Source of the DNA: Protoeuglena noctilucae
Lineage: Eukaryota
Assembly (NCBI GenBank): GCA_958009085.1
Contig: OY253677.1
Location: 434,001-498,000 of the forward strand
Reading direction: 5' to 3'
DNA: 64,000 nucleotides
Shown: positions 8,518 to 51,756 of the stretch, one piece after another
How positions within the stretch are numbered: position 1 is the stretch's first letter
Layout of the letters: each line of letters begins with the position of its first letter
Notes under the pieces: generated by a model
Told to the model about the DNA's origin: nothing
Seen by the model: only the letters and a program-made list of their open reading frames with translations
Databases searched by the model: none
Made by a program: the position numbers and the translations under genes

Positions 8518-9547
8518 TTACATGCCCTTGGTCCCCTCCACGATCTCTTCCATCGAGATGGCCTGCTCCTTCCCCGCAAAGTCGTTGTCCTCCGTCAGGA
8601 AGAGCATGCAGTGGCACTCCTTCCTCTCGCGCATGGGCACGCACGGGCAGTTCCAGAAACCCTGCTTCGCCTCCGCCTCCTTGTCGTCGTAGTGCCGACA
8701 CGGGCACAGGGGCGCGCCCAGCGTGTCCTGCAAGGGCGAGCCGGAGCCGTCTCCTGCCACCAGCCGTCGCCCGGCGGCCTCCCCGGGGCGCGCGTGCGTG
8801 CGCATGCCCGCCTCGTTGGCCCGGGACACAACCAAGTCCGCCCCGCCCACCTTGTGCTCTGCGAGGCCGCAGATGACCACCGCCGTCACCGACTTGTCCA
8901 CGCAAAAGTACGTCCCGCTGCCCTTGGCGTACTGCTCCGAGAACTTCCTCATCACCTGCAACGGAGGGGCGGGGCAGCGGGCCTCGATGGGGCGCGCAGG
9001 GCCGGCGAAACGCTCGGACGCACAGCCTCGCGGATGCGAGCCCGTGGGCGCGCCGGGGGCGCCCATCGGCCGGCGCACGGAGATGCTGACGGCGGCAACG
9101 ATGCTAGATCACGATGCGCGAGAAAGCCACGTGAGAGAGCGGGCGGATCGAGCACCGCGGGCAAAGGTAGGGTCGACTCGATGGGCGCCCCGAAACCAAG
9201 CGTATGGAACACGCGGGCGTGTCGCAGGAGGCGCGCGAGGACGCATACAACGAATCGCGTCGAAGGTGAGGAAGGCACGCGGCGAGACGAATGGGAGGCG
9301 TCGATTTGCGAAAACCGTTTCCCGAAACCGCTCTCCCGGCGCCGATGGGCCGAGAACCAGGCTGGCCAATGCATCGCCGGCTTGTAAAGCGCCAACCGTC
9401 CGCATCGGGAGCTCCGGAGGGACGGGACGGCCTCCTCACTTCAATGTTCTTGCTGCTGGGCTCCGCCTGTGCCACCGTGCCCTCCCTCCGCGCGGCCCCG
9501 ACCCTCGCGCCCATCGCAAGGCGGGGCCGGTACGCCAGGGACGCCAT
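8518..9547 (-). CDS. FTRC: Ferredoxin-thioredoxin reductase catalytic (beta) chain, chloroplast precursor, 140 aa
   Basis: Exons 9547-9440 (transit peptide, ...AEPSSKNIE), 8955-8851 (VMRKFSEQYA...GLAEHK), 8727-8518. CPC, CPC and CHC signature in LGAPLCPCRHY...WNCPCVPMRERKECHCMLF; TAA stop. Confidence 0.97.
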
Positions 9548-11497: not shown

Positions 11498-13312
11498 ATG
11501 GGGAGCGTCTTCTCCTGCTGCTCATCTGCACCCGATCAGGGAAAAGGGCAGGTTGCCCCGGCAGTGCAGCCGACAATTGCCGCACCTGCTCATGAGGAGC
11601 CGGCCGAGACGTTGGCCCACGATGCATCCGAGCTGCTGGAGGTGCCCCCTCAGCCGCCCAAGCTCCCCGTCGCCAACGGACGCTACATGCTGGTCATCGA
11701 TGACGACCAAGACCCGGTGTCTTCACGGTGCGGACCCCGGCTGGCGCGTGCGCCTGCCTGCGCTCGAGTACCTGGGCTCGTCTCACTGCTTGCCTGCGAG
11801 TCTGCGTCGCTATATGTAACGTCCCCGGCAATTCCCGCCCTCCGCCACAGGCGCCCTTTCGTCCGCATTCGGGTCCCACGCCGCTCAAGCCTCGTCAGGT
11901 TCAGCAACTACCTGCGAGACTTGGACAGAAACACCCCCCCCGACCAACTGGTGCTGGAATGGAGTGAGGTTCCATCTGCCCTCTACTCGACGACAGGCGA
12001 GGGGAACGCTCCGTCATGGCGCGCCGGGCATGGACCCTGGACATACCTGGATGACTGACTGCGTCCCCCCCCGCGTGCGCGTGCAGTGGACGTGGCCATC
12101 AAGATCGCCGACGACGCCGCCCAGTACATCGACGACATCAACTCGGCCATCGTCACGGCCTGGCACAGCCTCGCGACGGCCGTGCACCCCACGGAGAAAG
12201 ACGCGGAGAACCTCTTCCTCCTCGCCATGCGCCTCGACGCGCCCGTACTCTACATCACGGCCGCTATCTACCTCAACCGCGATGCTGCCGTGTACGACGG
12301 CCCCCAGGGGATGCTCCCGGCATACAACGACGGCGCCTCGCTACTGACGGGCCGGGGGCTGCAAGAGCTGGTGCAGCGGATCCCGGTTTTGCAGGCGGAC
12401 ATGGCCCAGTTCGACCCGCCCCTGAGCCTCCGGGCGCTGGACATGCTGTGCCTGGCGGGCGCGCTGCATTTGGTGTGCGAGAGTATCTCCCTTCACACGT
12501 GGGATAACGTCGTGCCTCGGCTGCCAAAAGCCTTCCTCAAGGCCATCGAGGGAAGGCACTTGAGGGTCATGAAGTACCTGGTCGACGTGTGCGAGCGGGA
12601 CCACAGCGTCTTGCGCGACATGGTGACGGCGGGGTGGCCCCCATGCACCGGGCACTCGGCGATGCGCTACCTCGCCGAGCACTGCACGGGCCGCAGCGGT
12701 GACGGCTTCGCCCGCGACGCGACCAGGCTCCTCATCGACTGCTACCGGAAGGTGGACGGGCTGGAGGGCATGCAGACGCACAAGAGCCACGCGATCCTGC
12801 GTGCAAGTGCCCGGCACGGCGCGACGGACGTGCTGCAGGAGCTCTTGGGGGCGTACCAGTGGGGTCTGCCGGCGACGACGTCCTTGGGGGCAGTGGGTCT
12901 GGAGGCGGGGTCGCACGAGTGCCTGTACCACGCGTCGAGGCGTTCCGACTCCACGATGATCCAGCTGCTGCTGGTGCGATACAAGCGGCCCGGGTTCGAG
13001 GACGTGCTGAGGAGGGGACTCAAGGCCAAGCAGCACAGGGCTATCCGGGCCGCGGCGTGCCTCGCCCTGCTGGGCCCGACCGACACCTTCCAGCAACTCC
13101 TCGGGGCGTACCAGCACGCGGATCCCAGCAACCGCTTACTCGCCGAGGTCATCGCGATGTCCGACGACGTGCGGGAGGGTGAGTGATTTGGCGCAGGGAT
13201 GGCAGGCGGCGAGCCCAGAGCGCACTGCCATACCACTGAGTGGCCCGTGCTTGCAGGTGGCGTGCCAGTGAACCCTGACCCTGTCAGCATCACGGCGAAC
13301 GCGCTGGTCTGA
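11498..13312 (+). CDS. Putatively N-myristoylated/palmitoylated protein with BTB/SKP1-like segment and degenerate ankyrin-like repeats
   Basis: Starts MGSVFSCC. Exons ~11498-11727, 11899-~11963/11996, 12087-13178, 13257-13312. Ankyrin-like units AFLKAIEGRHLRVMKYLV, AILRASARHGATDVLQELL, CLYHASRRSDSTMIQLLL, AIRAAACL...TFQQLL. BTB-like SRFSNYLRDL...ENLFLLAMRLDAPVL. Confidence 0.65.
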
Positions 13313-13839
13313 GTTCCACACCCGACATTGTTGATAGGGAAGTGATATTACCTATCCATCTTAGTACAGCATGATGTCAGCAGCACCAGTTGCCCTGCGG
13401 CCAGCTGTTGAGCGGCGCACACTTTAAAGCGCATTTCACGGAACTGACCATGGCCAGAGGGCCGACAGAGGCTGCTCTGGATTAAGACATCGTCACTTCG
13501 CGTCTCACCAGGGGCCTTTCTGGCATCCCCAGGTATGCCCTGCTTCTATGGTCTGACAACGGGCATTTAATCACCAGCCTCGCAAATACAGCGTATGTTT
13601 CTTGCACGTTCTTGCGGCTCGCGCGCGCTATTCTTGCGCTCTTCGCGCTTCACGTTTCGAGTTCCATGGCAGCCGCAACTTTGGTAGGCCCGTTGCCGCA
13701 GGCATCTGTATATATTTGCTGTGCTAGACGACATTAATACCGCTGGTGGACAGAGGGGCAGAGATTCGCGCGAGCTGCGCGAGGAGGGACGGTGGAAGGC
13801 TCTCCGCCCCCGTGAAGCCGTATCCGCCATCCCCGCGAC

Positions 13840-16130
13840 ATGTCGCCGGCGTCCCAGGTTGCGATGGCGCCACAGGGGCCGGCAGGTGCGTCTGATGGGC
13901 CGAGAGCGGCGCGGCCCCGAGCGCGGCGGCCTGCGCAGAGCCTGCGGTCGGTTACGGTGTCCACAAGCCAGCGCGGCGATTATTTGCAGACACCCTCCGA
14001 CCCGTGCACACAAAATTTTGTAAACATGATTCTGGAATAACCGCTGGAGCATGTAGGGCTGGCAACTGCGTGCGGCCGCATCTGGTTGCTGGTTGCTGGT
14101 CGATGCATACATGTGGCGGCCACCCCCGAGGGGGAGCGCGGGCCAAACGATGAAAAATTGCCACTTACCATTTTGTTCATCGATAGTTGCTCCCTGGGTG
14201 CAGGGGGGCCGAGTGCGGGTCAGGGCCACGCCAGCTCCACTGTGGCTCCGACCCAAGCGCAACTGACCAAGGCGGATGAGGCACAGGTCATGCTCGACGT
14301 GTTCCTGAGAGTCATGGAGGCTGACGAGAGCGAGGAAAACGAAAAGTTCATCGACAGGATGAACAAAATTTCAGGCGTGGTCCATGGTGTGCAGTGTGCC
14401 GTCAAGGACATGCCCTACTTGCAAGTGGTGGCACCAATCCTCGGCATAGCAAGCACCCTGTTCAAGCTGTTTGCTGACACAAGGGCGAACCATGGCGACG
14501 CCAGAGCTTTGATCCAAGAAGTCGAGCTTGTTACCAAGGGCGTGTACGGTCGCTTATACGAAAGGGTGGAGGCTGGCTACGGTGTCACCAATGTCGACGT
14601 CGTCAAGGGACGTTTGGAGAACCTCAAGAAGAGCTTGATGAATACTGAGAAGACTGTGGAGGTGTGGTGGTCTATATGCGCGGCCGGCTTTTCGGGCCTG
14701 GGCCCCCCCAAGGGGGTACTGGCTTGGCTGGTTCCGGCAGGAACCCTATCCAAGTCCCCCCAGTGCCCTTGCAGCCAAGGCAGAGCTTCATGCATGGCAG
14801 TCAGATGAATCGATCTCCTTGCATTGGAGTGATTGCAGAAATTTTTTAAGGAGCCAAATTTCGTCAAGGCTATAAAGAGCACGGGCTGGGCAAGGAAGTT
14901 CCAGGCGTGCAGGGACAATCTGGAAGACAAGGCGAGTAATATCTGCTGTCGTGTCGGGTCAGCTCTGCCACACATGCCAGAGCTACATGCTTTCACAGCA
15001 TTTCACAGCTGTGCATAGCACGAGAATTTCTGCAAGCGACCTGCTTTTCTTCTTTCTTGACTTGCAGTACAATTTTTTTTGCGAGGAGCTGCCGTGGCTG
15101 CCGCCGTCAGCCCGGCGGCGGCGCAACGTGGCTGCCTACCAGGAGAGCATGCTTGCGGACTTGAAGTTGACGGCAAAGAAGGGGGGCGTCGTGGATCTTG
15201 AGGCAAGATAGCTGCGCAATCCGTAGTTGTGGATTGGCAATTGCTTAAGCGAAGCATTTACAGCACGTGATGTGCTGTAAAGACTCTCCCTTTGGTGTGG
15301 TGTCGCAGGGCCTCTGCGTGACCTTAACGCCCTCGCAGCCCCTCGTGGTTGCCAACGCCGTGAAGCTCACAATCGCGAACGGGACCCTGGAGATGTGCAG
15401 TTGTGACGCCCCGCACGGGTACGCTATCAGTGTGGAAAATCGGGGGACCTCTCTTATTATGGAGGGTGTGACCCTGGTCACGGCAGGCATCCTGTGCTGT
15501 GATGGTGGAGAGGCGCTGCTCACGGGGACGACCATCAAGGGTGCGCCCGAGTTCGGCGTGCGGTGTGTCTGAGGCGGAAAGGCCAAGCTGGTTAACGTGA
15601 CAGTCTCGGCAGCCAAGAAGTACGGGCTGCATGTCGATGGGGACAAGAGCATGATGAGCGTGCAGGGGGGCACCGTGGAGGGGGCGGACGGCAACGCCAC
15701 TGGGGTCATGTGCCAGAACGAGGGCCGGGTGGAGATGGCAGAGGTGGCGCTGGCGCGGTGCCTGGGTGTCGTGGTATCCGGCAAGGGCAGCAGAGCGGTG
15801 ATAGAGAGGGGCAGCATCAAGGAAGCGGGGCAGAACAGCGGCGTGTTCTGCCAGTACGGCGCGTCAGCGGAGCTGGACAGCGTGACCATCTCCGACTGCC
15901 GCTGCGGGGTGTCTCTGTTCCATATGGGCAGCAGCGTGAAGATCACGGGGGGCGCGATCCTGGGATGCGTCGAGGACGGGGTGCACCTGGCCAAGGACAC
16001 GGCCGCAGAGCTGCGCCGCGTGACGGTGCTCAGATGCGGGCGGCACGGCATGCACTGCGTCGGCGGCCAGCTGATCGAGGAGGGGTGCAACCTTAGCGAG
16101 TGCGCGCAGGGGAGCGTTTTCAAGCGGTGA
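13840..16130 (+). CDS. MLKL/HeLo-like N-terminal four-helix bundle fused to a right-handed parallel beta-helix (~517 codons); in-frame TGA at 15570-15572 (possible pseudogene)
   Basis: Exons 13840-13885, 14204-14661, 14839-14931 (GC donor), 15068-15202 (GC donor), 15309-16130, all phase-compatible. Beta-helix coils GILCCDGGEALLTGTTI, GVRCV*GGKAKLVNVTV, GVFCQYGASAELDSVTISDC, GVHLAKDTAAELRRVTVLRC. Confidence 0.65.
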
Positions 16131-16496
16131 TAAACCGCAGCGCCTGCCTGCCCTGGCACTGAGGCCGTGGATGGAGTTGTGCAGGGTACGACCATTGCTG
16201 TTTATGCATCGTGTGGAGGACACCGAGGGTGCTGTCGCCTGCTGCGACCTAAGGATAGGCCGTGTGCCATGCTTTGAATTCCGTTTCACATTCTGTCGGC
16301 CTTGCACTCCGCGCCTGGGGCCCTCAACCCAGGCACGGGGCGTCGGCCGTTGCAAAAGACTAGCACTAGCACTAGCACATCCACCATGTCATCGTTTGAT
16401 CATGCTATCTAGGTGCTTCTACGTGAGTCACAACCACGACAGTCAATCACAGACAACACGTCGGGAGGGGGCCATAATCCATCATCCCCGCCGCCA

Positions 16497-19400
16497 TCAC
16501 CGCCTCTTCCCTCCCTGCCCCTTCTCGCCCTTGCCCCCCTCGCCGCTCCTCTTCCGTGCGCCCCGGGCCACCCACTCCGCCCCCGGCCACTGGCTGGGGT
16601 CGCTGTCGCCCTGCACACCCGCCGCATCCGCCACGCCCTCCACCATTGGTACACCGGTCCCCCCGCCCCTCGCCGCCACCAGCAGCGACGCCGCCAGCGC
16701 CTCCAGCCTCTTGGCGCGAGATGCGGCGGCCTCCAGGTCCCGGCTCCTCGCCTCCAGCGCCACCGTCAGCCTCTCAATGCGAGCGTCCCGGGCCCTCACC
16801 ACGTCCCGCAGCAGCCGCTCTGCAAAGACGACGCAGGGGCGGGGAATGCTTCGGTGGCAAGAGAAAGCGAGTGCCGCGAAACGACATTTTACAATGCTCG
16901 CTGTCAACCTCGACCACCAAGCCCTTGCACTTCACACCGTGCGCATCCCCGCCACCAGCGCAGCTCTGCCTGACCCACACCCAGTGACCCAGCTCAGACT
17001 TCCCTACGCCCCTCACCGGTCTCAGAAGACGCCGCTTTGCGCATCGCCGCCGCGTCACGGGCGGCAGCGACCGGCCCATCCCGCGACGCAGTGGCCGCCT
17101 CCGCCAGCGCCCTGTGCCGCGCGCACTCCGCCTCCAGCTCTTCCCTCCTCGCCTCCAGCGCCTCGCACCGCTTCCGAGACTCTCCCAACTGCCCCTGCAG
17201 CACCGCGAGGTCCTTGGCCATCTGTGACGCAAGGTCGCGTCCCTGGGGGGGCGAGAGCGAAGGCGGTGTCGGCACGCCCGGGGTGGGGAGCGGCCATGTG
17301 ATGAGGTGACGTGACGCTCCAGCTAGTGCCCTCTCGACCCTATCTCACCTTGTCCACCACCTCCCGCAGGGCCGCCTTGGCCGCCGCTTTCCCCTCCCGC
17401 TCCCTCCGCGAGTCCTCTGACAGACGCTCGCACCGCGCGCGCAGCACCGCCACCTCCCGCCGCAGCGCCAGCATCGGCTGCCGGGCCGCGGACGCCATCG
17501 CCTGCGCCACCAGCGTCGCCACCGCCCACGCCACACCCGGCCCTGGCCCCTCCCCATCGCCCGTCTCTGCCTCCGCCCGCACATTCCCACCACGGCCCTC
17601 CACCCGCCGCCACCCCCGCCCGCACCCCACGCACACCCCCTCCCGCACCCGCACCCGGGGCAGGCCGCTGCCCCCCGTCCCCACCGGCCCGTGCTCCAGA
17701 GCCACCCTCCTCGCCACCCCATCCGCCGCATCCGCCCCGGCCCTCTCCACACCTGCCACCGCCCCTCTCATGTGCGTCAACGCCTCCACCTGGCGCAGCG
17801 CATTCGCCAGCGCCACCTCCTTTGCCGCCAACTCCCTCCGCAGCAACGCGGTCTCCGAATCGACCCCCACTGACGACCCCGGCCCCTCGACCCCACCGCC
17901 CGCCTCTGCCCTTGCACCTCCAGCCACCTCTGCCTCTACCCTCACACTTTCCGTCACCACCGTCCCGTCTGCCCCCCTTCGCACCCCCGCTTCTGCTGCC
18001 ACCAGCGCTGCCGTCAAGTCCGCACGCTCTCCCTCCAGCGCCGCCACCCGGCCCCGCAGCGCCGCCGCCTCCTCCGCCGCCCTCGCCAGCTGCCCCTCCA
18101 GCACCTCCGCCCGCGTGCTCACCGCCCCCACCTCGCGCTCCGCCTTTGCCTCAGCAACACGCGCAACCTCCTCCGCCCTCACCCGCCCCGCCCTCGCCTC
18201 ACGCTCCCCCCTCTCCGCCGCCTCTACCAAAGCCTCCAGCCGCGCCGCCCGCTCCCTCGCCACCCGCAAATCCTGCGCGAACGCCTCTGGCACGCGCCCG
18301 CGCCAGCCACCCTCCGCACGGTACGCAGCCAACGCCGCCTCCGCCTCCGCCCCCTCCATCCCCACCCCTACCACCCCCGCCAACGCCCCCTCCGCTGCCG
18401 CCGCGCTCTGCTCCCCGTCGTACCGCGCGCTGCCCGCCTGCGACTGCCCCTCCCTCCCCACCACGCCACCTACTGAGTCCCCCACCGTTGGCCCACCCAC
18501 CGCCGTCGCCACCGTCACTGGTGCTGTAACCTGCCCCGGCTGCCGCAGCCGCGACGGAGTCCGCGGCACCCGCGGCGCCCCCGCCGGCGTCCGCAGCGCG
18601 TCGATGCCCTCCGCCCGCGCCGTCACGGGCCGCAGTGCCTCGGCAAACAGCCTCTGCCTCGTGCCACGCACCCCGCTCGTCACGCCCGCACCATCCCCCG
18701 ACCTCCCGCGCCCCGGGCTGCCCTCCGGCACCCTCGCAAGCAAATCCTCCGTAGGTGTTTGCGTTTGTGTTCCCCCATCGCTCCCCTCCCTGCCCCCAGA
18801 CCCCTCCCCCACACCGCCTGGCTCGAACAGGGGGTTGCTTCCCATGCGTCGCTCCCCACGGCTCGACGCTCCACCGCTCTCCGTCCCCCCCGGCGACTCG
18901 GACGTTCCCTGTGACTCCTCTGCCAGGCCCAGCAGGTCCGACAAGGTCGCCTGGGCCCCACCCGTCTCTGCCTCGCCCCCCTCACGCACCGCCCCTCCCA
19001 CCTCGTCACCCTCTCCACCCACTTCCCCCACGTCGATGCGCGCGTCAGACATGGCAAACACCGACGCCGCGCTTCCCAGCTCCGACAGCCCCGGCAGCAG
19101 CGCACCCGAAGCCTCGGGGGACCCCACCGCCCCCGACACTCGCAATGCTGACCGCGCACCCGCCGCATCCTCAGCCAACGCCCCCGACACTCGCGGCTCT
19201 CCACCCACACCCGCCGCATCCTCTGCCCCTTCACCGCGGCTGCTCTCTGGAGCCTCCCACCTCCCGCCACGCGGCGTGCGGCTACCCCCCGCGCCCTTCC
19301 TGCTCCCGCCATGCGCTGCCCCTGTACTCTCGCGCGCCCCCCGCATCGCTCGCCGGCCCTCAGGAGTCTTGGCAGGGCTCATGTCGAAGAACCCGCCCCG

Positions 19401-22400
19401 CCTGCGCCCCGCCACCGCGCTGCCCCGGGCGCTGCCCAGTGGGGATGGGCCCGAGGACCCCGCTGGAAGCCCTGTGCCCCCAACTGCGTCGCTCTGACTG
19501 AGAGCATCCCGGGACAAGGACAGCTCCGTCTGTGCAGCGTCCCTCGGCGTTGCGGGAAGGCCGAACTCCGGGTCCGGCGTGAAGGGCGCGGGGTAGAGCC
19601 CCGCACCCCCCCGCAGCCGCAGCACCGTGTGCGACGCCTCCACTGTCCCCAGCTCCCCTGCACCGTCCCACGGCCCGCCGCCCCCGCGCAGCCGCAGCAC
19701 CGAATGCGGCGCCTCTGCTGTGCCCAGCCCCTGCGGCTCCCTCTCAGCATCCGCTGCAGCAGCGGGGGTCCCTGGGGCCTGGCGCGCCCCCGCAGATGGG
19801 CTGGCCCTGGGCGCGGCTGCTGGGCTCCTGGCCTGGAACCGCGAAGTGCGGGCGGGGGACCCAGGCGCGCCTGTTTGCGCTCTCCCCGCCTGCACAGCCC
19901 TGCGCTTGCCGCCACCTGTGATGCCCTCCCTGCGCCCCCCGCCCCCCCTCTGCTCCCAACAGCGCCGCGGCGGTCATCCCTTCCGCCAGGGACNNNNNNN
20001 NNNNNNNNNNNNNNNNNNNNNNNNNNNNNNNNNNNNNNNNNNNNNNNNNNNNNNNNNNNNNNNNNNNNNNNNNNNNNNNNNNNNNNNNNNNNNNNNNNNN
20101 NNNNNNNNNNNNNNNNNNNNNNNNNNNNNNNNNNNNNNNNNNNNNNNNNNNNNNNNNNNNNNNNNNNNNNNNNNNNNNNNNNNNNNNNNNNNNGGCCTCC
20201 TCGCACCGATGCTCAGCCGCCCTCGCCTCGCGCCGCGCCGCCGCTGCGTCCCCCGCCGCCGCCGCCGCCACCGCTGCCGCCGCCTCCAGCTCCGCCTCCG
20301 CAGCAACCCGCGCCCGCGACTGTGCCGCCCCCTCCTCCGCCAGCACCCCGATCTGCGACTCCGCCTCTCCCAGACGCCGCTGCAGGTCGGCAGCAAGCGC
20401 ACGCGAGCCCTCCAATTCCACCGCCAGTTGAGAAGGGTTTGAGGGACCCTGGGGGACGGCATCAGCCGCCTGTGGTGCTGGCGTAGCATGGTGGTGGGAT
20501 TGGGCGCCGTCATCCAGCAACCGCGGCCCTTCCGACTGCACCCCGACGCTCAACCCTGCTCGCATCTCAGCTGCCTGCGTCCCTGCATTGGACATGGTTG
20601 CAGAGGTGTCTGTGGCAGTGGCCACCGTTAGGGCGAGAGGCGCGGCCTGTGTGGAGGTATTCTGGCCAGGCCTCGCAGCCGTGTCCAGGCTGACGTACGC
20701 GGCTGCCGTCTCAGGGAGGGCCGCCTGGGTTTGGGCGTGCGCGGTGGGGGCGATGGCTGGGTCGGTGCCCCGTTCGGCCGTTGCCGCTGTCGCCCACACA
20801 CCAGCGTCCGCGATCGATGCAGATGCTTGGCCCGCCGCGTCATGCGATGCCGCTTGGGTCGTCTGCTGCCCTGCATCGCGAGCCCCGTCCTGTGTAACAG
20901 TTTCCTCCCCCTGGTCACGCACAGCAGAGCTGCTGGTCTGCTGCTCAGCGTCATGGGCGTGGCGTGCAACCGTCTGCTCGCCCCAGTCATGCACACGTGC
21001 TCCCTCCGTCTGCTGCCCCGCCTCATGATGGACACGCACAAGCGTCTGCTCGCCCTCATCGCGTGTGGCAGTGCGAGCACCGTCCGTCTGCTGCCCAGCA
21101 TCGCGACCCACTCTCACAGGCGTCTGCTCGCCCTCGTCACGCACGCCAGCCCCGACCGTCTGCTGCCACGCGTCGCGAGCCCCGCTCTGTGTGACTGTCT
21201 GCTCTCCCTGTTCGCGCACAGCAGTACCGCGAGTCTGCTGCGCGGCGTCCAGGCTCGCTTGCGCTGTCATCTGCGTCCCGGCGTTGCGGACGGGGGACCG
21301 CGGAGCAACAAACGTCGACACGGGCAGACCAGGGCGGGCAGGGCTCTGCGGCAGCTGCCCATTCGATGCACGCCGCTCCATTGCTGGCCCACCGGCCTCC
21401 TGCACCGTCCCCTGGCCGGCAAGTGTGACCGGTGCAACCGGTGTGTCGGCCTGGGATGCTCGGGACAGCGACAGGGGTACCGCGAGAGAGCCCTGCGAGT
21501 GCACTTCTGCCATAGCCTGCGCCCCTCGCGACACAGTCACGGGGCGTGGGCTTTGAATATCGCTGGCGTCTGTGGGTCGCCCAGACTCGGTCACCAATGG
21601 GAGCCCTGATTGTGCGGTCATTTTGACGGCGCGTCGCAGGTGACCCAGCTCTGCCTCCAATGCCCCCCGCTCCCCACGCAGGCGCCCCAGCTCCGCAGCC
21701 ATGTCCACCAGCTGCCCCTCCAGATCCGCCGCCCTCTGCAGCGCCTCCCCCAGCGCTGCCACCTGCTGCGCCGTCCCCGCTTCCTGTGACGCACGGCGAT
21801 CATTCACTGCACGTGTCGCCGCCTCGCGTGCCGCGGCCAGCTCTTCGCCCGCCGACGCCAGAGCAACCCGCAAAGCCTCTGCGCGGCCCTCTGCCTCAGC
21901 TACACGTGACACCTCCACCAGTGGCAGTGCCTGGTCCCTGGACGGCGTAATGGGGGCCACAGCCGCAGCTGCTGCAGCTGCCGCTTCGGCCTCGGCCACC
22001 CGGGCCTCTGCGGCGGCGAGTAAGCCCGCCAACGCCCGCGCCAGGCGCGCGGCCTCTTCCCTTCCAGTTGCCGCCTCCGCCACCGCCTCTGCCACCCGCG
22101 CTTGCGCCGCCACCACCTCCCGTCGCAACGCCACGTCCCGCTGCTGCGCTGCCTCCTCCACGTCCACGCAACGCGCACGCCACGCCTCCATGCTCCTGCC
22201 GAGCTCCTCCACCTCCCGCCGCAGGCCCTCCGCTGCTTGGACTGCGACGTCGCACTCTCGCTGCGACGCCTCAACTGCCTCCTGCGCCGCCCGCAGTTCC
22301 TCCCGCAAAGCCGCAGCCGCGCCCGCTTCCACCGCCGCGCGGTCTCCCGCCTGCAACGCCGCCTCCAGCGTTGCCCGGAGCACTCGCACTTCCTCCGCCA

Positions 22401-25400
22401 TCGCCCGCTGCCCTGCACCGGCCCGCTCGCGCTCAGCTGCCGCCGCCGCCGCCACTGCCCGCAGCCTCTGCACCTCCCCCGCGACTGCCTCCGCGGGCGC
22501 CGCCCCTGCCGCGTCGACCTGAACCTGCAACGACGCCACCCGCGCACGCAGAGCGCTTGCTTCAGCCGCCACCCCCCGCACGCCCGCCTCCGCCGCCGCC
22601 AGCTCCGCCTCGAGCACCCGCACGCGGTCCCACAGCGCGTGCACCTCGGCCCTCGCGTCCCCCGCCTGCAGCAGCGCCTGCCGAGCCGCGTCCAGGTTGG
22701 CAGACAGGGCCCGAACCTGCCCCTCCAGTGCGCTACGCTCCGCTTGCACCAGCGCCCGACCGGGCGACTCCGGCTCCCAGTTCCTGCCGTCCCCGACGCC
22801 CGCGAGCCGGGGCGTGATGGGGGGCGTCACGCCAGGCAGTGGCAGCGGCAGCGCTAGGGCAGGCACGACGGCGTCACCCCGGCCGGTAGAAGACAGTGCA
22901 CCCTCATGCCCCGCCCCGCCAGAGCCCTCGTCACGGATCACTGAGCTTCCCTCACGAATCGCCGATTGCGCCGAGCGATCTCGCATGACGCTCTCTGCCG
23001 CCTCCACGTCCCGCGCACGCACGCCGAGCTCCCGGCCGGCAGCCTCCACCTTCCCCGCCCGCTTAGACAGCTCGACTTCCCACGCCCGCAACTGCTCTTC
23101 CTTAACTGAGACCTCGCTTGCCCGTGCCTCCACCTCACGCCCCATTGCAGCCAGCTCTCCCTCGCGCTCCGCCGCCCGCCTCTCCCCCTCCACCAGACCG
23201 CTCGCACGCTCCAGCAGCTCGTCCTCCGCCGCAAGCAGCTCTTGTAGTTTCGCGTCCAGTGCCCGCCGCTGCTGCTCCAGCTCCTCTCGCACGGCCAGCT
23301 CACGTGCCTCCCCCGCCCCCAGTTGGGCCTGGAACGATGCCATTGCGGCCTCACGGGCGGCCAGGCTGTCTTGCGACGCACGCAGCTGCGCCTCCAGCTC
23401 TGTTGCTGCAGCCTCCCGGGCGGCCAGGCTGTCTCGCGACGCACGCAGCTGTGCCTCCAGCTCTGCCGCCGCAGCCTCCCGGGCAGCCAGTGCCGCCTCC
23501 GCCTGCCCAGTGACCGCCTCGCGCGCCGCCAGCGCAGACTCCGCCATGCCCACCGCTGCCTCCCTATCCACGAGACCAGCCTGGGCCTCCCAAAGCCTGC
23601 CCTCTTGCTCCCCCAGCGCTGCCTCCCTGCTGGTAAGCGTGGTGGCCACAGCGTCGCCCGTGCGGTCCCCTGTTGAAATTCCCTCCGCTCCCACTGGCCC
23701 GCTCATCTCGGCAGAAGTCGTTGCCGCCGTCACCGCAGGCAGCTCGGCCCTCGCCGCCTCCATTGCCCCTCTCTGTTGCTCCACATCAGCCCTCTCCCTC
23801 TCCACCCCTGCCCTCATCGCCTCCACCGCCGCCCTCTGCTCATCCAACTCCGCCCTCTCCCCCTCCACCTGCATTGCACGCTCTTCCACTGCTGCCCTGC
23901 CCCTCTCCACCTCAGCCATCGCCCTCTCCACCTCCACCGCACGCCCCTCCACTGCCGCCCTCTCCCTCTCTGCCTCAGCCCTCGCCTCCTCCACTGCTGC
24001 CCCCTCCCTCTCCACCTCTGCTCTTGCCGCCTCCACCGCCGCCCTCAGCTCATCCACCTCGGCCCTCTCCCTCTCCACATGCACCGCACGCCCCTCCACC
24101 TCCGCCCTCATCGCCCGCACCCGCTCCTCCTCCTCCAGCACCCGTGCCGCGTGGCCCCGCACCTCCCCTCGCATCACACCCACCCTCGCCTCGGCCTCTG
24201 CCATCTCGGCACGCATCCCCGCCACCCTCGCCTCCGCCTCCGCCGCCCGTGCTGCCGCCCGCTCCAGCGCCTCCTCCGCAGCGTGGTGGTCCGCAAGTAA
24301 CGCGTCGAATCGCGCCTTCCACCCCGCCACCACCCCCATCGCCTCCGTCACTCGCGCACGCAGCGTCTCATTGTCACGACGCAGTGCCGACGCGTCCTCT
24401 GCCCTGCCAACGCTTACGCCCACCCACTCGACGTCCCCGGAGCTCCACAGCGTCGGCAGCGCCCGCACAGGCGACGCCCCAGGGCCCATACCACCCTCCT
24501 GCGCTCTGTCGTGCCTGGGCGCGTGGGTCGACATGCCACCCACAGGTGACGCCGTGACCTCCTCAGGCGCGCCACCATGCCGCTCTGGTGTTGTGGCCCC
24601 GAACGCAGCTGCGTCCGTGCCCAGACCAGCCGTGGCGCCCCTGGTGGCGTCAAACAGAGGGTTCTCTGCCAGACTCGGGGACCGCGGCCGCCTCCACGCG
24701 ATGGGACTGGCAGCCGAGGTGGGGCTGTGAGGCGGCGACGCGTGGCCCGCCGTCTCTGCAGCCAGTGACTCCGCCGTAGGTGCCGAGACAATGTGAACAG
24801 CAGCGTCGGCCGTCAACGTGGTGCCGGGCCAGAGTTGGCGAGCCGTGGCAACCACCGCAACTGCGGATTCCAGCTCCCGCACCCGCCCCGCCAGCGCAGC
24901 GTTGTCGGCCAAGAGCTCCGCAATGCGAAGGGCGTCGTGCGCGGGTGGTGCCCGAGCCGGCGACCATGGTGCGGCGGGCGCATTCACTGGCACGCCTGAG
25001 TCATGCGCCCCTGACGCCTCTGTCAGGGTGCCAGTCGCTTGCGTCGACACGGCGTCAGTCGCCATCCCCGTCTCGGCAGTGATTGGCCGTGCGCCGACCG
25101 CCGCAGAGGCGACGGGGGTGTCAGGGTGGGGAGCAGGGAGGTGCGCCATAGGAGCGACCGCTGAGGCGACACCCATTGGCACTTCCGCCTGCGTCGCTGC
25201 GTCGGCCGTCTCGAGTGGCCTTGCGACGAGCCTCAAGTGCCCGTCTCCGTCGTTCCCCGGGCCGCTGGATGCGGATGAGGATGGCGACGGTGGCTGTGAG
25301 GAGCGTGGGGCGCTGTGGGGTGAAGACGATGACGACGATGGGTTTCCTGATGGACCGCCCGTTTGCGTGCTTGCATGAGCCGGCGCAAGTGTCTCGGCAG

Positions 25401-28400
25401 AGCGCGGGCCGGCAGATGAGTCAGCACCCGCCCCGCCAGTCTCGGGAGCGACGGTCGCCACGTGCTCTGTCCGGCTAGCAGCCACAGCGGCCTCTGCCGC
25501 ACGCAGTTGCGCCGTCGCAGCAGCGAGCTGGTCCTCGAGTCTCCGCGCCCTCGCAGACATCACGGACAGCCGCTCGTCGCGCGCCTCCATCGCACGCCTC
25601 AGCTCCTCCACCGCGGCCAACAGCACTCCATGCTCCGCCGCCGACGCTCCGGGCGTGGCCGCCGGCGTCGCGAGCGCGTGCTGCGGCAGCCACGACTGCA
25701 CCACGGCGTCTGCCAGGTCGCGTGACGAGGACCCCACCCCCGCGTCCACCGTCACTGGCGCCAGAACCGAAACGTCAGAATCCGACTCCTCCGAGTCAGA
25801 AACGGACTCAAGGACCGCAGAGTCGAGGACCGCGGAGTCGGTGAGCGCCGTGTCCCCTGCAGTTTGAGCCAAAGCCCCGACCCCTGCGCTCTGGGCCAAC
25901 AGCGCTGGTCTGCCAGCAGCGGCCGCCCCAGTCGCCACGCCCTCACGTGCGGACTCCCACCCGCGCGGCCGCAGCTCCTCCCCAGCACCGGGTCCGCCGA
26001 GCAGCGGCTGCGCTTCCCCGGCACTTAACGCCCGTGACACCATGCCTGCCTGCTCTGACCCCCCACGTGCGACGCCAGCTGCCGCCGCGGCACCCCCAGG
26101 CGCGGCCTCCGAGGGCGCCACGGACGGCGCCGGGGTGAAGAAGCGCGTGTCCTGGCGCGGCAGGCCCTGGCCGCCCTCCCACGCGGCACTGTCGGCCGTC
26201 TGAGACCCAGCCGCCGTCACTGATGCAACTGCGTGCGATGGCTGCGGCTGCGTGGATGTCCCCGCTTCGACCAGGGGCGACCCGGGCCCCGCCTGGGACA
26301 CCGCGTCGCGCGTCTCGGCGCCCCGCGGCGAGACTGGCGGGGTTCTATGAGGAGGGGTGGTCGACAGCGTGGCAGCGTGACCGGTGTCGTCACGCACGCC
26401 CTCTCCTCTCCCCTCCAACACCACCCTCGCGCGGATGAGTTCCTCGTCCCGCTGGCCCAGCTCCCCGTGCAGCTCCGCCACGAGGGCCTGGAGGCCATCG
26501 ATGCGGGCCTGGAGCGCCGCCTCCCGGTGACGAGCCTCCCTGGCCGCCCGTGCCAACGCCTCTAGCGCTCGCGCCTCCGCCTGCTCCCCGCACGGCTCGC
26601 CAGGGGCAGCACTGGGGTGGAGCTGCACCGGCACTCCCTCTGCCGTTGTCGTCGCTGCGCCAACAAGCGACATCGCTCCCTCAGCCTCGGAACCTTCCAG
26701 CTCCCGTCGCCGGGTCTCGCTTACCTCCCTTTCGTGCTCCAGGGCCGCCTGCAGCTCTGCCGCGCGCCGGAGGTGCGCCTCGGCCTCTCGCTGGGCGCTC
26801 TGCAGTTCGGTCTCCAACGCACGCAGTTGCGCAGACTTCTCGCGGACCGCCTCTTCATGTGATACCACAGTCACGTCGTCTCTCGGTCGCTCTGAGCCAG
26901 GCGTGCGGTCCTCCTGAGCCCAAGCATCCGCAGTGGTTGCGGCAGCCTGCGCAGCGGTCGATCGCACTGGCACAGACGCTGACGCTTCCCTCGCGTTGAT
27001 CGAAAGCACGACTGCCGTCTGCTCGGAGACCACCCTGTCTGTCTGTGTCCATTGGTCGGCCGGGTCGCCTCCGCTGGGCTGTGTTGCCCACACAGGGTCG
27101 CTTTGCCCACTCCCAATCGCCTGCGTGGCCACTGATGACGCTGCCGTCCCAAAGTCGGACCCTGCCGCTGCCTCGACCATCGCTGGGCTGTCCGTCTGGG
27201 CCACCGAGTGCGCCCTCGCAGCGGCGATGAGAGGCGCCTGACGCTCAACGGCATCTCGCAAGACATCGTCCGTCTGCATGGACGTCTCCTGCGCCTGCCC
27301 GCCAGCGCTCGCCGACGCTGCCCTTGGCTCGTCGCTGTGCACGACCAGGGTGATGGTGACGGGCGTGGGGGCACCCTGCACTGTCAGATCGGCTGTCTGC
27401 GCCATGGTCGCGACCGTGGAGCGCGCAAGGTCGCCACTCGAATGCTCATCCGTTTGCACTCCCTGCACGGCCCTGCCACGCTCATCGGAATCCCCAAGGG
27501 CCTCGCCGGAGCCAGTCTCAAGTGTGACAGGTGCGACGGTCTGTGTGCTTGCGTGATCTCCCAGGACCCGCGGCACCTCCCCACGGCTCACGGCAGCCTC
27601 GGGCAGAGTCTGGGACGCCCCGTCAGCGACCGCAGACGTCGCCTGCACCGCCGCTGGGACCGCAGAGACCTCGGGAGACTGCGCGACGGCATCAGCAAAT
27701 GTCAGGGTCGCCAGATGCTGAGATGATGTGCTACGCGTAGTTGGTGCTGCATCGTGCTGAGCCGACGCGTCAGCCGCGGTGGGTGCTGCCCCATGTTGAG
27801 ATGCGGCATCAGCCGTGGTAGTTGCCGCCGCACGCTGAGTCCCAGCATCAACCATTGCCGGTGCTGCACCATGCTGAGTCGCAGCGTTGGTCTGGTCTGT
27901 CCAAGCGCTTGCCTGGGTTGCCGCCTCCGCTGTGGCACTGCGGTCCGTGGCAGTGGCCGCGTCGGCAGTCAGAATCGCACGCGTCGCAACAGCAGCATCG
28001 CTGAGTGCTACAGCTTCCGTCATTGTAAACGCATCGGATCCGGGAGCAACTCCGTCAGAACCACGCGCATCGTGGGGCGCACTTGCATTGGTCGCCGATG
28101 CTGCCGGTGCGTTGCCTGCGCCAGCCGTGGCAGAGGCAACAGCGCGGACGGGGATCATGACCGGATCCATGGTCGCCCCGAACACCCCTGCAAATGGTGG
28201 CGCGTCCGTGCCCACATCTGTCGTGTGGACACGTTCCGTGTCCGTCGATGCGTCTGCCACCATGGCGCGTCGGACGCCTGCCCCAGTCTCAGGCAGTCCC
28301 TCAGGCCCCAGCGCGTCTGCCTGGGCGACCGCATTTGCCACCGCGTGCACGCCGAATGCCTGGGGCTCGGTGCCCGTCGAGGCATCCATGCCTGCGACAC

Positions 28401-31400
28401 CCGGGGTGGCGTCCGTGGTCATACCTGCGTCGACGAGTCGCACATCAGGCCGAGCCTCCATGGCGGTCGAGGCGTCGATGCCAGCCACACGTGGGGCGGG
28501 ATCTGTGTTGGTGTTTGCATCGTTGCTTGTGACCCCAGGCTCAGTGCTCGTGGCTGCGTCGTTGGCTGCCACCCCAGGTTCAGCGTCCGTGGCTGACACA
28601 GCATCGAGGCTAACCACGCGCCGAACGGCGTTGGTGACTGTTGCCGCGTCCACAGCCGCCACGCCAGAGGACTGGTCGTCCGTAGATGTCGCTGCGTCGA
28701 TGGCAGTAACTCGCGGTGCGGCATCCGTTGCAGTGGCGGCATCGAGGCTGGTTGCGCCAGGTGCGGCGTCGGTGATGGTAGACACGTCTGTGCCCCGGAA
28801 GCGAGGCTGGACATCTGTTGTTGTCGTCGTGGAAGTACCGACGGTTGCAATACCCGCCTCGGCATCCGTGACCGACCCCACATCGACGAGTTGGATACCG
28901 GCGTGAGCGTCCGTGGCAGTGTCTGCGTCGACACCAGCCGCATGCGGGGCAGGATTTGTACCCGTGGATGCGTCATGGCGTGAGACACGAGACGGAGTAC
29001 CCACAGCAGGAGTAGTAGCAGTACCCGCACCCTCTGCTGCAATGTCAGGCTCAGTGGTGGTGAGCGCATCGGCCCTCTCGACATGAGGCGGGGCATCCGT
29101 GGCTGTCGCCGCGTCGAGGCTGGCGATGCGAGGGATGGCGTCCGTCATAGTAGACGCAGCCGCGCTCTCAGGCAGGGCCCTGGGCTCCACACTCCTTGTC
29201 TGAGCCGCAATGACGGCAGTTGCGGCCACAGCCTGGGCACCGGCGCTGTGCATCGCAAGTTCCTCCCCCACCGCCGCTTGCACACCAGCACTGTGCATGG
29301 CGGGTGCCTCTCCCACTGCCGCATCCACCCTCGCCCCATCTCCCCCATCGCGCACCACTACTGGCATGTCGCTGTGTTGCGTCCCAAAGTCTGTCGTCTG
29401 CACCGCCTCCGTCACTGTCCCACGCTCCACCCCTCGCAGCTCCCCGCCCGCCTGGGTCGCCGCCTCGCTCGCCCCCCCCCCCGCCTGAACGCCCTGCTCC
29501 ACGTCCCCAGCAACTGCACCACCAGACCCCGCCTCGCCACCCACCACGCGCTGCCCTTGGTCGCCCGAGACCTGGGGCCCCTCCCCAGTCCCCCAGACCC
29601 ACGCATCACCCTCCTCTGCGCTGGCGTACCCCTCCTCGTCGCCGCCGCTCGACTCTGGCGAGTCCCATGCGCTGCGAAACTCCAATTCCGACGCAGCGAC
29701 AGAAACCGCACGCGAGCGCGCACCGTGACCACCCCTCCCGGCCCCGCGTCGCTCCGATGCCGAGCGTGTCGAGCGCGGTTGAGGGCCGGGCCAGGCGATT
29801 GCCTCGGATGGGGCAACGGATGACGGGGAGTGGAAGGCGGTGCCAGTCTCACTCCGCGTCCGCGACAGCGCCCCCAGGGACCGGTGACGTGGGGTGGCGG
29901 TCTCGGACCTGGGGCCGGCATGCGCCGCGTCCCTCGCGCTCAGGCTGGCGCCCGCGAGCAGGGACTCGGGCGCGACCACTGACAGTGGCGGGCGACGGCG
30001 GGGCACTGTCGTGTCGGCCGCTGTCATAGACACCTGGACAGCAGCGTCGGCGCGAGTTTGGCCGGAGGGAGCCTCAAACGTGCCGGGACGAGCCGCATGC
30101 TCAGCTGGCTCTCCCGGCTGCAACTGGGCAGGTGGCGTCTGCGCGGACGCGTCGGCTGTTGTGACGGCCGCGACAGCATCGCTGCCTGCATCCACGCGCT
30201 CCACGGTTGCGGCATGCGACGCGCTCGCACGCGGCTCCTCCGCCGGCTGAACAGCGGCCGCCCCAACCCCTCCCTCCGTCTGCACGTGGCCGTCCGCCAC
30301 ATCCACCGCCAACCGCGGACCTCGCGCCTCGTCGCTGCGTCGGCCCTCCCCCAGCGCCGCCGCCATCTTCAACGCGGCCAGCTCTCTGCGCAGCCGCTCC
30401 ACCTCCGCCTCGCGCTGCGCCACCGCCGCCGCCGCCGTCGCCTTGCCCCACGACCCCTCCGCCCCGCCCTCGCCGCGCCCCGCCAGCTCCCCGTCCCGCA
30501 GAGCCAAGTCCCGCTGGAGCCCCTCTGCCACGCCCTGCAGCCACTCCGCCCGACGCCGCTCCGTGTCCGCTGCGTGCTGGGCTTCCTGCCACTGCATGAC
30601 CACCTCCGCCAGCTCCCCACGCAACTCCGTCACCGCTCCCTCCGCAGCCCGCGCGCGCTCCTCCCAGTCCACCGCCCCTGCCGCCGCGTCCACATGCGGA
30701 CCCCCTGCGCCACTTGCGGGCTCTGGAAGGGACTGCTCACCTTCGTCCCCTGACGATGTCGACACTGACCCCACCTCATCTACGCGTGACGATGGTGACG
30801 GGGGCACCGAATGGTCCCCCCCGCCCGCACCCGCGCCAGTCGTGAACGCATCGCCACGCGTCGAGTCTCCTGCCCGCCTCGAGTCTCCTGCCAGCCGCTG
30901 GTGGAAGTCGCGGTCGCTGGGGGACGTGGCGAGGGTGGCGGACGGCAGCGTCGACGGCGGCTGCACTACACGCGGCGGCGGCGAGAGACCCGGCGTCGAC
31001 GCAGCGTCCTGCTCCACTGTGCTCCGTGCTGCGCTCGGCCCGCGGATGACAAGGGGCAATGCAGGTCCACGCACCGTAGTCGTAATGGCGGGCGCACTCG
31101 GCACACCGCTGTCCATCGCAGCGACAGCGTCCCAGTCCGCGACCGCGTGGGCCTGCGCCTGGTGCCGTAGCGCCTCCACTTGCCGCCGCAGCTCGGCAAT
31201 CTCAGCCTGCGCTGCGTCCCAAGCAGCTGGGCCACCCCCCATGTCCGCTGCACCGTCTGTCATCCCATGCGCTGCACCGTCAATCCCAGAGTCAGCCGCG
31301 TTTCCAGCGCTGTCCGATGTCAGTGCTATCATCGCGCGTGGGACGGCCAGCGAGTCCCCAGGAACCGGGGTTGACACCGACCCCGCCACCCGCCTGGCCT

Positions 31401-34400
31401 CCGCCTCTGCCGCCGCCAGCGCAGCCCAGCTGGTGCCGAACGCCCCCACGTCTGTCTGCACATTTGCGTCTCGCACCGCCCCCTCCGCCTGCATCGCGAT
31501 TAACGATGCAGCCGGGACATTCCGTGACCCCTCTGCCACGCTGGCTGCTGCCCTCGGCCCAGCTGTAGACGCATCCACGCCCTCTAGAGCTCCTGAAGCC
31601 TCAACAGCCCCCGGGCCAGTCCCAGTCTCGAACGCAGAGGACGCGTCGAGGAATGCTGCAGCGAACTCTGCGTCCATCGCCTCGTGGGCCAACCGACGCG
31701 ACTGCTCCAACGCCGCACGCAGCGCCACCACCTCCGCCTGCGCCGCCCGCGCCCGCATCTCCGCCTCCTCGGCGCGCCGCAGCAGCGCCCGCGGCCCCGC
31801 CGGCAACCCCGCCCTGCCGCCTGGTCCACTGCCACCCTCTCCGCCTTCGCTGGATGACTCGTCTGATGCCGCACCAGAGGGCCCTTCGCTGGTCTCCAAG
31901 GATGAGTATGAGTCTGACGATCCCGCAGACGCCATCTCCACGATCGCCGCGCCTGAGGAAGGGGCTGGGACGTGGCCTGCAGCTGCGCTTGCACCCGCAT
32001 CCCCCATACCAGGGTCGGCATCACCGTCCCCGCGCGCCGAGTCCTCGGCCCTCACAGCAGCCACCAGGGCTTCTTGACGCATAGGTGCCTCAGTCTGCGC
32101 GCCCTGCCGTGCCACTTCTGCCCCCGTTGCCTCCTGCGGGGTCCCTTGGGCCATCGTGGGCTCCCCCGTCACCCGCGGGACCCTCACAGGAGACCCAGGG
32201 ACCGCAGATGCTTTTTCTTGCATGGAATTGATGAAGTCCATCTGCGCCCGCGCCCTCTGCAGCTCAGCCGTCCGCTGCTCGAGCAGCTGCCAGGCGTGGC
32301 TGGCTTCCTCCGTGAGCCTCGCGACCTCAAGCGAAGCCACCATCGCCTCTTCCCTCGCAGCCTCCAGCGCCGCACGCAGGGCGGCTGTGTCCTCGAAGTC
32401 CCCTGCATTGCCAAGGGTGCTAACCACGACAGGAGCGGCGGTGGACGGGCTGAGTGGGTTCGTCTCTTGTGGGTGGAGAGGCTCTGCCTGTGCTGCAGCC
32501 TCAGCGGTGCTGACCCCTGCCTGCGTGGTTGCTGCTCCCATTGCCAGAGGCTCCGACTGTACTGCAGCCTCCCCAGTGCTAACCCCCGCCTGCGCCCCAA
32601 AGTCAGCACGCTCCGTCGACCTGGCCAGACGCTGGGCTGTAACAAGACCAGCAGAGTCGTCCTCAGCAGCATCCGCCCCTCTATCAGATGTCTTTGCTGC
32701 TGCCTGAACCGCCCGAGCCTCCCCCGCTTGCGGCATTGTGCCAGTCCCGGCCTCCGCCACGCCCGCCACCGCTTGCACTCCGCTGTGGGCGCGCTCGCTC
32801 ACAACGGCGTCAGTGCCATGAGCACGCTGGCTGGGATCGCTGGCGTAGGCATCAGTGCCCGCGCTCGTGATTGCCGGCACTGCCTGCACCCCCCCATCCA
32901 CGCCCTGAATCATCTCCATGACAGTGATGGCCTCGGCTGTCCCCATCACCGCCTGTGCACCGCCATCGGCACGCTCGCTGCCGCTTGCATCAGTGCCGAC
33001 CTCGGCTGTCGTCGCTGCCGCCTGCATCCCGCACTCCATGCCGTCGCCTACAGCCCTGAGGGCCCCCGGCGTCGGTGAGTGAGGCGACGTCTGCGCAACG
33101 CCGTCCACAGTCAGTTCCTGTGCCTGCAGAGCCACGTCCCGCACCGCCGCTGGGTCCGTCTCCGTTGCCACGGCCACGTCGACAGGGCGCGGCACAGCGC
33201 TGACGGCGTCCGGCGCGCCTGCACCGACCGCCAGGGGTGCAAGTGGCCGAGACTCCCCACTCGCACGGCCCTCTGCCACAGAGCTCTGCACCGCAGTGGC
33301 TGCCGTCTCTGCCACCGTCTGCGTGGCTTGCGTGGCTGTGACTGGAACCGCCTCCCCACAAGCGACCGTATTGGATGGGGCAATGATGGGCCGCGGTGTC
33401 CCTGTCTGGGTCAGCTCTGCACCCTCGACGTCAGCAAAGGTATCTGTTTGCGTCGACCCTTGCTGGGACACAAGCACAGCACCGTCCGTCTGCGTGGATC
33501 GCAGCTCGGCGGCCACCCCAGCACCGTCCGTCTGCGTCCCATGCATCGCCATCTCGAACACCGCCTCGACCCCAGCGGACGCCACCGGAGCCCTCGCCAC
33601 CAGTGCCGCATCCACCCTCGCCGCCAGCGCTTCGCTCTGGTCCAGCAGAGCGCCGCTCCCGGTCGCCAGGTCCGCAAGGACGTCCGCCAGGTTTCGAACC
33701 TGGGACCTTAGGGCTTCGTTATCCGCAGCTAGACCGGCCGCGTGCAACGCCGGCGCGTCCGTCGGCACGCCCGGTGGGGCGACCGTGAGGGCGAGTGTGA
33801 CGGGGCGACCGTCACGGGGCGACCTCGCCACCGCATCTGTAAATGTGCCCTGTTCCATTGTGCTGGCAGTCACAGTATCTGTTTCGGTCCCCTGCTCCAG
33901 TGTTCTGCTGGCGACTGCATCTGTAGCTGTACCCTGCTCGAGTGTGCTGGCAACCGCATCTGTAGATGTACCGTGATCCATTGTGGCAGCAAGAGCATCA
34001 GTCACCGTGCCCTGCTCCACCGCGGATGACGGAGGCACGAGGCTGTTGTCCTGCCACGCCCTCGCAACCTCCGTCAGCCCCGCACCCTCCGTCTGCGTCC
34101 CCTCCGCAGCCGCAGCATCCAGCCCCGGGCCGTCCTGCGTGCCTGCCGTCACCAATCCACGGCCGCTCGCTGCCATCTCCCTTCCCACCAACGAAGCCGC
34201 ATCGACCCCACTCACGCCCTCCGTCTGAGTCTCTATCGCCAACCCCACTGGCGGTGCCCTGCTTACCCCACCCGCATCATCCGTCTGAGTCTCTGCCCCC
34301 AGCCCCGCCGCACGCGGCCCAGCCGGGCTTGGCAAAGCGACCGCATCCGTCCCAGCGTCCGCGACATCCACCTCGTCGTCCCCGCCCACGCGAACCGACC

Positions 34401-51397: not shown

Positions 51398-51756
51398 AGC
51401 ACGGACGTCTGAGCCCCACACACGTTGACGGTCCCCTGTGTGGAGCCAGCCGGCCGGCCACAGCCAGGGATGGGCGGCCCCTTGCACTCGCTGACTATTG
51501 CTGCTGATCACCGTAGCCTGTTGTGAAGATTTGGCGTTGAGAAATTTCAGTTACGAAGAGAGAAACTCTGACGACTTCGCCCGTGCCCTTCTGACAGCTT
51601 TGTTACAGCTCGGCTGCCTGCGCCGTCGCGCGAGCATTCAGCGCGAGACGCGACCCGCAACACGCAAGCGTCTGCCTGGCTTCTCCTCGAGATCCGCCGC
51701 CGGCGCAAGCGAATTACTCCCGGTGTCCTGGGCTTCTCTTTCGTCGCGTGCTCACC

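Follow-up and report, generated by a model that had tools for sequence, protein, structure and literature searches.

Does the locus at positions 13840–16130 on the + strand of a 64,000-nucleotide stretch of Protoeuglena noctilucae DNA (contig OY253677.1 of assembly GCA_958009085.1, positions 434,001–498,000; hereafter the window, whose numbering we use throughout) encode a cell-death effector fused to its own sensor, and does it encode an intact protein? An original prediction had described an MLKL/HeLo-like helical bundle joined to a parallel beta-helix in an alga, and took the fusion for a candidate immune or programmed-death protein. We find a real gene at this position, which is probably a lineage-restricted, five-exon nuclear gene for a helical module followed by a beta-helix, and the present allele of which is probably truncated or newly disabled, its beta-helix exon being interrupted by an in-frame TGA that the prediction had overlooked.

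Read from the sequence, the gene runs from an ATG at 13840 to a stop at 16128–16130. Joined by their coordinates, its exons give 1554 nt, or 517 codons and the terminal stop, and codon 332 is the sole internal stop. The proposed exon 1 (13840–13885; ATG, 15 codons plus 1 nt, donor CAG/GTGCGT, the slash marking the splice boundary) is too short for a composition test, and the start of the gene, placed by splice-site reading alone, is uncertain. Exon 2 (14204–14661, donor GAG/GTGTGG) encodes residues 16–168, which are predicted to be all-helical, exon 3 (14839–14931) encodes residues 169–199 and exon 4 (15068–15202) residues 200–244, the latter two ending in GC-AG donors (AAG/GCGAGT and GAG/GCAAGA, respectively), whilst the last exon, exon 5 (15309–16130), encodes residues 245–517, a Cys-rich right-handed parallel beta-helix, and ends in TGA TAA. 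The peptides quoted in the original prediction lie on the + strand in exons 2, 3 and 4. The exact end of exon 4 is likewise uncertain, being placed by splice-site reading alone, and other GT donors, both in phase 0, follow 15187 and 15190. Acceptors of all four introns end in GCAG and the phases are all compatible. A TATA-like element (TATATAT, 13709–13715, +) was also read 125 nt 5′ of the proposed ATG, which is suggestive only.

Composition by codon position shows coding periodicity in the proposed exons, where GC content at second codon positions (GC2) is 0.36–0.52 and at third positions (GC3) 0.68–0.89, whereas the four proposed introns and the flanks on either side show no such pattern. 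This contrast, together with a joined frame that is open except at codon 332, establishes 13840–16130 as a real gene. It could be objected that there is no gene here and that these are chance open frames in GC-rich DNA, as long open reading frames (ORFs) abound here in several frames, such as one of 316 residues along the opposite strand (15245–16195), and the locus has neither relatives nor firm RNA evidence. However, the three-base periodicity is limited to the proposed exons, four introns have consensus-like sites in compatible phases, and the product contains 11 regular rungs and a Beta_helix match of 49.4 bits, and we regard chance frames as very improbable.

The unusual splice sites of the gene, two of whose four introns are GC-AG (the exon 3 and exon 4 donors), match local usage. 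A DRG-type GTPase gene elsewhere in the window (51757–53388, +), identified by MMR_HSR1 and the extension C-terminal to it, joins six exons into an open 369-residue frame ending in a TGA terminator. Of its five introns, two are of the GC-AG kind, with donors AAG/GCAAGC and AAG/GCGAGG. Judged from the DRG gene, GC-AG splicing is common in this genome. For comparison, a preprint on GC-rich pelagophyte algae reports 14–17% GC-AG introns (10.1101/2024.10.30.620910).

Conceptually, the five exons would yield a cytosolic protein of 517 residues in three parts. An 84-residue leader would come first, followed by an alpha-helical module of ~160 residues, predicted to consist of a hydrophobic Gly/Ala/Ser-rich helix, three long amphipathic helices and a short extra helix, and finally by a Cys-rich right-handed beta-helix of ~11 rungs. 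The present-day product is most likely a protein of 331 residues, comprising the helical module and a 3.5-rung stump. For the intact form, the mechanism that we favour would have the beta-helix act as a rigid scaffold for binding or self-association, restraining or freeing a helical module that is active on membranes and makes contact with them through its hydrophobic first helix.

Exon 5, translated with X at the internal stop, scores 49.4 bits with the Pfam model Beta_helix (PF13229), whose cutoff is 25.9 (expectation value, E, 4.9e-13), and the portion 3′ of the stop matches the same family alone (42.8 bits, E 5.3e-11). Rungs start with G-[VLM]-x-[CVL] and are spaced 22–26 residues apart, giving ~11 in all, in good agreement with the parallel beta-helix of about 10 coils that had been predicted, and the domain contains 16 Cys in 272 residues. 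The single-sequence AlphaFold2 (AF2) model of this exon is all-beta, with 25 short strands, a predicted template modelling score of 0.68 and a predicted local distance difference test score (pLDDT) of 70–83 over residues 50–170. The Foldseek rows listed for the model are mostly beta-solenoids (pentapeptide-repeat proteins, phage depolymerases, polygalacturonases, NosD), with none listed at E ≤ 0.001 and the best at 0.025. Exon 5 is therefore like PF13229 Beta_helix/NosD-like proteins in exceeding the Pfam gathering score, in its rung length and in its predicted beta-solenoid fold, but its best matches are bacterial-type proteins of 1400–1600 residues that are only 24–27% identical to it, and it differs from the family in being unusually Cys-rich, apparently cytosolic, fused to an N-terminal helical part and interrupted by a stop.

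That stop is a TGA at 15570–15572 (+), codon 332 of 517. It sits in a turn of rung 3, between model strands 82–87 and 91–100, in the local context C-V-TGA-G-G, with a Cys two residues before it; at the same turn position the other rungs carry G, N, Y, H, K or D. We compared the locus across three DNA contig sets, one from a culture run and two from metagenome runs. Contigs X1 (metagenome, possibly the source of the window itself) and X2 (culture) both cover 13600–16400 with 0 differences, and a contig from the second metagenome run (X7 record 9) covers 15481–15783, again with 0 differences. As the TGA is identical in all three sets, it is not an assembly slip. The simplest reading is that a single G-to-T change in a Gly codon produced it, Gly being found at this turn in other rungs. 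Since the TGA falls in the last exon, exon-junction-dependent decay of the mRNA would not be expected under the established model of that pathway, which leaves the truncated 331-residue protein as the likely product.

The 185 codons 3′ of the TGA are still coding-like, with a perfect rung pattern, GC3 of 0.89 and the separate Pfam match given above. An intact post-stop segment of this kind implies that the break is young, that it is bypassed, or that it is balanced by a second allele invisible in the contigs. The latter two amount to a different explanation of the locus, in which the TGA does not terminate in vivo, whether through selenocysteine insertion or programmed read-through, through splicing out, or through a coexisting sense allele, and a full-length or nearly full-length protein is made; the Cys two residues before the TGA is also in keeping with this. 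Eukaryotic selenoproteins combine a TGA with a selenocysteine insertion sequence (SECIS) in the 3′ untranslated region, and here the TGA is present but the ranges searched contain no SECIS: no Rfam family, SECIS included, was found at E ≤ 10 in 13000–18000, and no ATGA..AA..GA core on the + strand from the end of the gene to 27135. TGA is moreover a normal terminator in this genome, ending the DRG gene and the helical/beta-helix gene alike, and the prokaryote-style ORF calls on 13 public contigs all begin 3′ of the internal TGA. Splicing could in principle remove it, as 30 frame-preserving pairs of donor-like and acceptor-like sites span the TGA (for example 15558–15665 and 15541–15612), but the best-looking pair (GGC/GTGCGG...GTGCAG/GGG, 108 nt, 15558–15665, +) encloses a segment that looks coding rather than intronic, with GC2 of 0.39, GC3 of 0.78 and regular rungs. 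With regard to alleles, contigs drop minor variants, and a second allele with a sense codon is possible in a diploid. One G-to-T change would also suffice to explain the TGA. We consider a bypass improbable.

The splice-like pairs and the possible second allele nevertheless weigh against a truncated or disabled gene as the best explanation, and so do the transcription data, the nature of the proposed mechanism and the limits that a lack of relatives sets on any reading of selection. Searching exon 2 with phmmer against 1.84 billion representative proteins gave three matches at E ≤ 0.001, one of them the same DNA translated as a prokaryote-style ORF and the other two repeat artefacts, and a word-indexed search of longer proteins found no relative of exon 2 among 361 candidates. 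For the beta-helix exon, one of 2654 near-length candidates passed, which was the exon itself, and two of 6513 longer candidates passed, both generic PF13229 proteins at 24–27% identity. Pattern matches were confirmed in none of 373 and 104 cases in metagenome contigs, none of 18 and 4 in viral contigs and none of 55 in contigs of prokaryotic genomes. The stretch itself occurs in marine metagenomes and in runs labelled with a single organism, and by these searches the gene appears to be lineage-restricted, an orphan of one GC-rich marine photosynthetic eukaryote. A gene standing alone in this way offers no comparison by which to judge purifying selection or the ancestral codon at position 332. 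The RNA data come from the one RNA run that contained any of the stretch, which is from the same sample and covers 5 of 30 bins, and we draw no conclusion for the uncovered parts. They yield one 205-nt contig in the gene (14984–15188, depth 3.4), which is colinear with the genome across the acceptor of intron 3 and contains no splice joints, such that it may be pre-mRNA or carried-over DNA, and the number of introns of the gene confirmed by RNA is 0. Finally, the functional mechanism outlined above draws only on composition and a weak analogy.

Two further observations concern transcription. The RNA contig ends at 15188, next to the possible GT donor after 15187, a coincidence that we treat as chance at a depth of 3.4. 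A separate 456-nt metatranscriptome contig (depth 4.8) starts at 16313, 3′ of the stop of the gene, and may derive from the 3′ end of the neighbouring gene on the minus strand or from the 3′ untranslated region of this gene.

What, then, is the helical part? Profile and fold runs on it were performed on the translation of each exon taken singly. In the AF2 model of the 152-residue exon 2 translation, helices span positions 22–38, 45–66, 75–96, 99–125 and 128–151, at low confidence (pLDDT 51.5), and the structures matched by this model are generic helical bundles, including BAR domains, designed bundles and transmembrane bundles of channels. Exon 3 completes helix 3 and, after a Pro turn, encodes most of the fourth long helix, which ends in exon 4; there a PWLPP/RRRR linker and another helix follow. 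The most hydrophobic helix, VVAPILGIASTLFKLF (residues 90–105, 14425–14472, +), ranks first on the Eisenberg scale, and the highest 19-residue Kyte-Doolittle window starts at residue 88 (mean 1.72). Immediately before it lies an internal Met, residue 85 (14410–14412, +), a possible alternative start; judging by position, a start at Met85 would place the hydrophobic helix at the N-terminus, and it would otherwise be internal. The strongest amphipathic moment of the N-terminal part falls at residues 152–175 (muH 0.58), and Gly/Pro breaks at residues 113, 128–131, 140–142, 151, 174 and 208–212 split the region into helices of 20–30 residues. The first 80 residues contain no hydrophobic stretch, and hence no signal peptide under this gene model, as the prediction had said. 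Two weak matches in this part were set aside as chance, one of exon 3 to BurrH, a TALE-like repeat protein in PDB (E 0.019, no individual stretch of the match being significant), and one of exon 2 to the NCBIfam lipoprotein signal peptidase model (E 0.025, 14.7 bits against 181).

We looked for a relationship with cell-death bundles by several routes. Pfam-A hmmscan at E ≤ 10, run separately on the translations of the three N-terminal exons, gave no MLKL_N, HeLo, HeLo-like, RPW8 or Goodbye match in any of them, and families of the MLKL/HeLo type often need profile–profile methods. MLKL_N and Goodbye are represented in Pfam by PF22215 and PF17109, respectively, and HeLo, HeLo-like and RPW8 have models there as well. 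The only Pfam match of the N-terminal part was ARM_TANGO6 (E 0.082, 12.8 bits against a cutoff of 27), PADLOC and NCBIfam returned nothing meaningful for it, and sequence searches of PDB returned chance matches only. Protein language-model neighbours of exon 2 are small helical hypothetical proteins of fungi, mostly Basidiomycota, at a similarity of 0.91, a level of 0.9 being reached by 4–10% of shuffled proteins. Among the neighbouring clusters that bear families, four carry MLKL_N on 10% of their members, followed by Goodbye (0.84), TNFAIP8 (0.84) and DUF7708 (0.81–0.82). Recognition by the language model was weak, scoring 1836 where 91% of known families attain at least 2300, and family agreement was seen in two of the ten best family-bearing matches, for which the calibration reads the family as 'probably wrong'. 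A tblastn search of all exon translations against the 64-kb window for paralogues returned self matches only.

The comparison with known systems is similarly divided. PMC10197012 describes HeLo/HELL and Goodbye-like domains as relatives of the MLKL bundle whose activity depends on an N-terminal helix of transmembrane propensity. Like HeLo, HeLo-like, Goodbye-like, MLKL_N and RPW8 domains, the module here has ~150–160 residues, is predicted to be all-helical and opens with its hydrophobic helix, which is followed by long amphipathic helices and an extra 'brace-like' helix, and its nearest language-model neighbours are small helical fungal proteins, some in clusters with MLKL_N or Goodbye. Unlike them, it has no profile or sequence match to the class, its hydrophobic helix is not N-terminal unless translation starts at Met85, and it occurs in a photosynthetic protist, in a protein without relatives. 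The regulatory partner also differs: the class is paired with a pseudokinase or kinase, a NOD/NLR or an amyloid motif, whereas the only other domain that Pfam finds here is Beta_helix. In a study of basidiomycetes (10.1101/2022.03.16.484565), many MLKL-like domains fall below Pfam thresholds and have extra helices ahead of the bundle, to which the two helices before the hydrophobic helix could correspond. However, the BaMLKL/Goodbye-like domains of that study were linked to MLKL by HHpred (>98%) and by AF2 models of good quality that drew on alignments of the families, and no alignment exists for the module here. In a limited literature search we found no description of an algal fusion of a HeLo/MLKL domain to a beta-helix, the HeLo-like/MLKL papers in that search being on fungal NLRs.

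We conclude that the evidence decides neither for nor against a kinship of the helical part with MLKL and other cell-death proteins. Two specific readings of this part can still be weighed. In the first, residues ~85–244 form a membrane-permeabilising bundle of the HeLo/MLKL/RPW8 type and the beta-helix is a fused sensor or oligomeriser, giving an algal immune or death protein without a NOD or kinase. The number and size of the helices (~160 residues, four long helices and one more) are compatible with this, as are the language-model neighbourhood with MLKL_N, Goodbye and DUF7708, the hydrophobic helix at 90–105 that opens the module straight after Met85 (cf. PMC10197012) and the sub-threshold basidiomycete domains with their extra helices (10.1101/2022.03.16.484565), but the calibration of the language model (1836 against 2300, agreement in 2/10) is weak, and we hold this reading to be doubtful, if possible. 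In the second, the helical part has no role in cell death and serves a beta-helix binding protein as an ordinary stalk, for oligomerisation or as a membrane tether, much like the coiled-coil necks of other beta-solenoid proteins. This would account for a part that shows no family signal and whose low-confidence model matches generic bundles only, and the longer proteins related to the beta-helix are all large PF13229 repeat proteins of surface type; set against it are the Gly/Pro breaks, which suit a bundle folded back on itself better than a single long coiled coil, the lack of a signal peptide for a surface role, and the language-model neighbourhood, which points elsewhere, if weakly. We regard such a stalk as a tentative but genuine possibility.

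As to the sensor–effector fusion that had been predicted, the joining of a helical N-terminal part to a beta-helix stands, whilst the idea of an intact product is weakened by the in-frame TGA. A bolder version would have a divergent permeabilising bundle of the HeLo/MLKL type wired directly to the beta-helix as a one-protein device to sense and kill, perhaps antiviral, with the TGA marking either a population that has just been disarmed or conditional read-through, a scenario that we think unlikely.

The locus is also visibly lower in GC than its surroundings, as had been noted, at 0.555 for 14001–15000 against 0.69–0.75 in the neighbouring region of giant ORFs. The difference is explained by an abundance of K, N, F and E in the N-terminal part (GC2 0.36), together with two introns that have a GC content of 0.49. 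An origin from a transposon or virus was considered for the drop and dismissed, there being no terminal repeats around 13–17 kb and no viral relatives, and since composition explains the lower GC no foreign origin is required. The lowest GC in the window, 0.524, lies elsewhere, at 61001–62000.

The surrounding genes place the window in a photosynthetic eukaryote, by virtue of a plastid-related ferredoxin-thioredoxin reductase catalytic chain at 8521–9108 (−) (E 2e-38), and the label 'alga' holds in that broader sense only. Other ordinary eukaryotic or plastid-related genes are ORMDL (57435–57842, −), an S1 domain gene (48081–48674, −) and ribosomal protein S6 (50833–51504, +). Just upstream of the helical/beta-helix gene, an ORF at 12059–13183 (+) of 375 codons is strongly coding-like (GC3 0.90) and has no Pfam match; it contains a direct repeat (12809–12859 and 13064–13114, 85 codons apart) whose motif presumably resembles an ankyrin-type helix pair. 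On the minus strand, a 5111-residue ORF (19744–35079) contains a run of N at 19994–20193, one of three scaffold gaps of exactly 200 N (the others at 43337–43536 and 61690–61889), and is accompanied by further long ORFs at 35248–38769, 40843–42273, 43550–45001, 45650–47530 and 17340–19895, the last having an Ala/Glu/Arg-rich translation of coiled-coil-like appearance. The 5111-residue ORF and the long ORFs flanking it have no Pfam domain at E ≤ 0.001, and these giant minus-strand ORFs are possibly one giant structural gene.

For annotation of this genome, the GC-AG introns confirmed in the window are a practical point, and the helical module illustrates how orphan genes in GC-rich algal genomes are not assignable by standard profile tools. 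The locus further shows that a plausible domain call made from sequence can rest on a gene with a premature stop. If the helical module were indeed of the HeLo/MLKL type, it would extend the executioner superfamily to marine phytoplankton and represent a new mode of coupling, by direct fusion to a beta-solenoid, with a bearing on death and virus resistance in bloom-forming algae.

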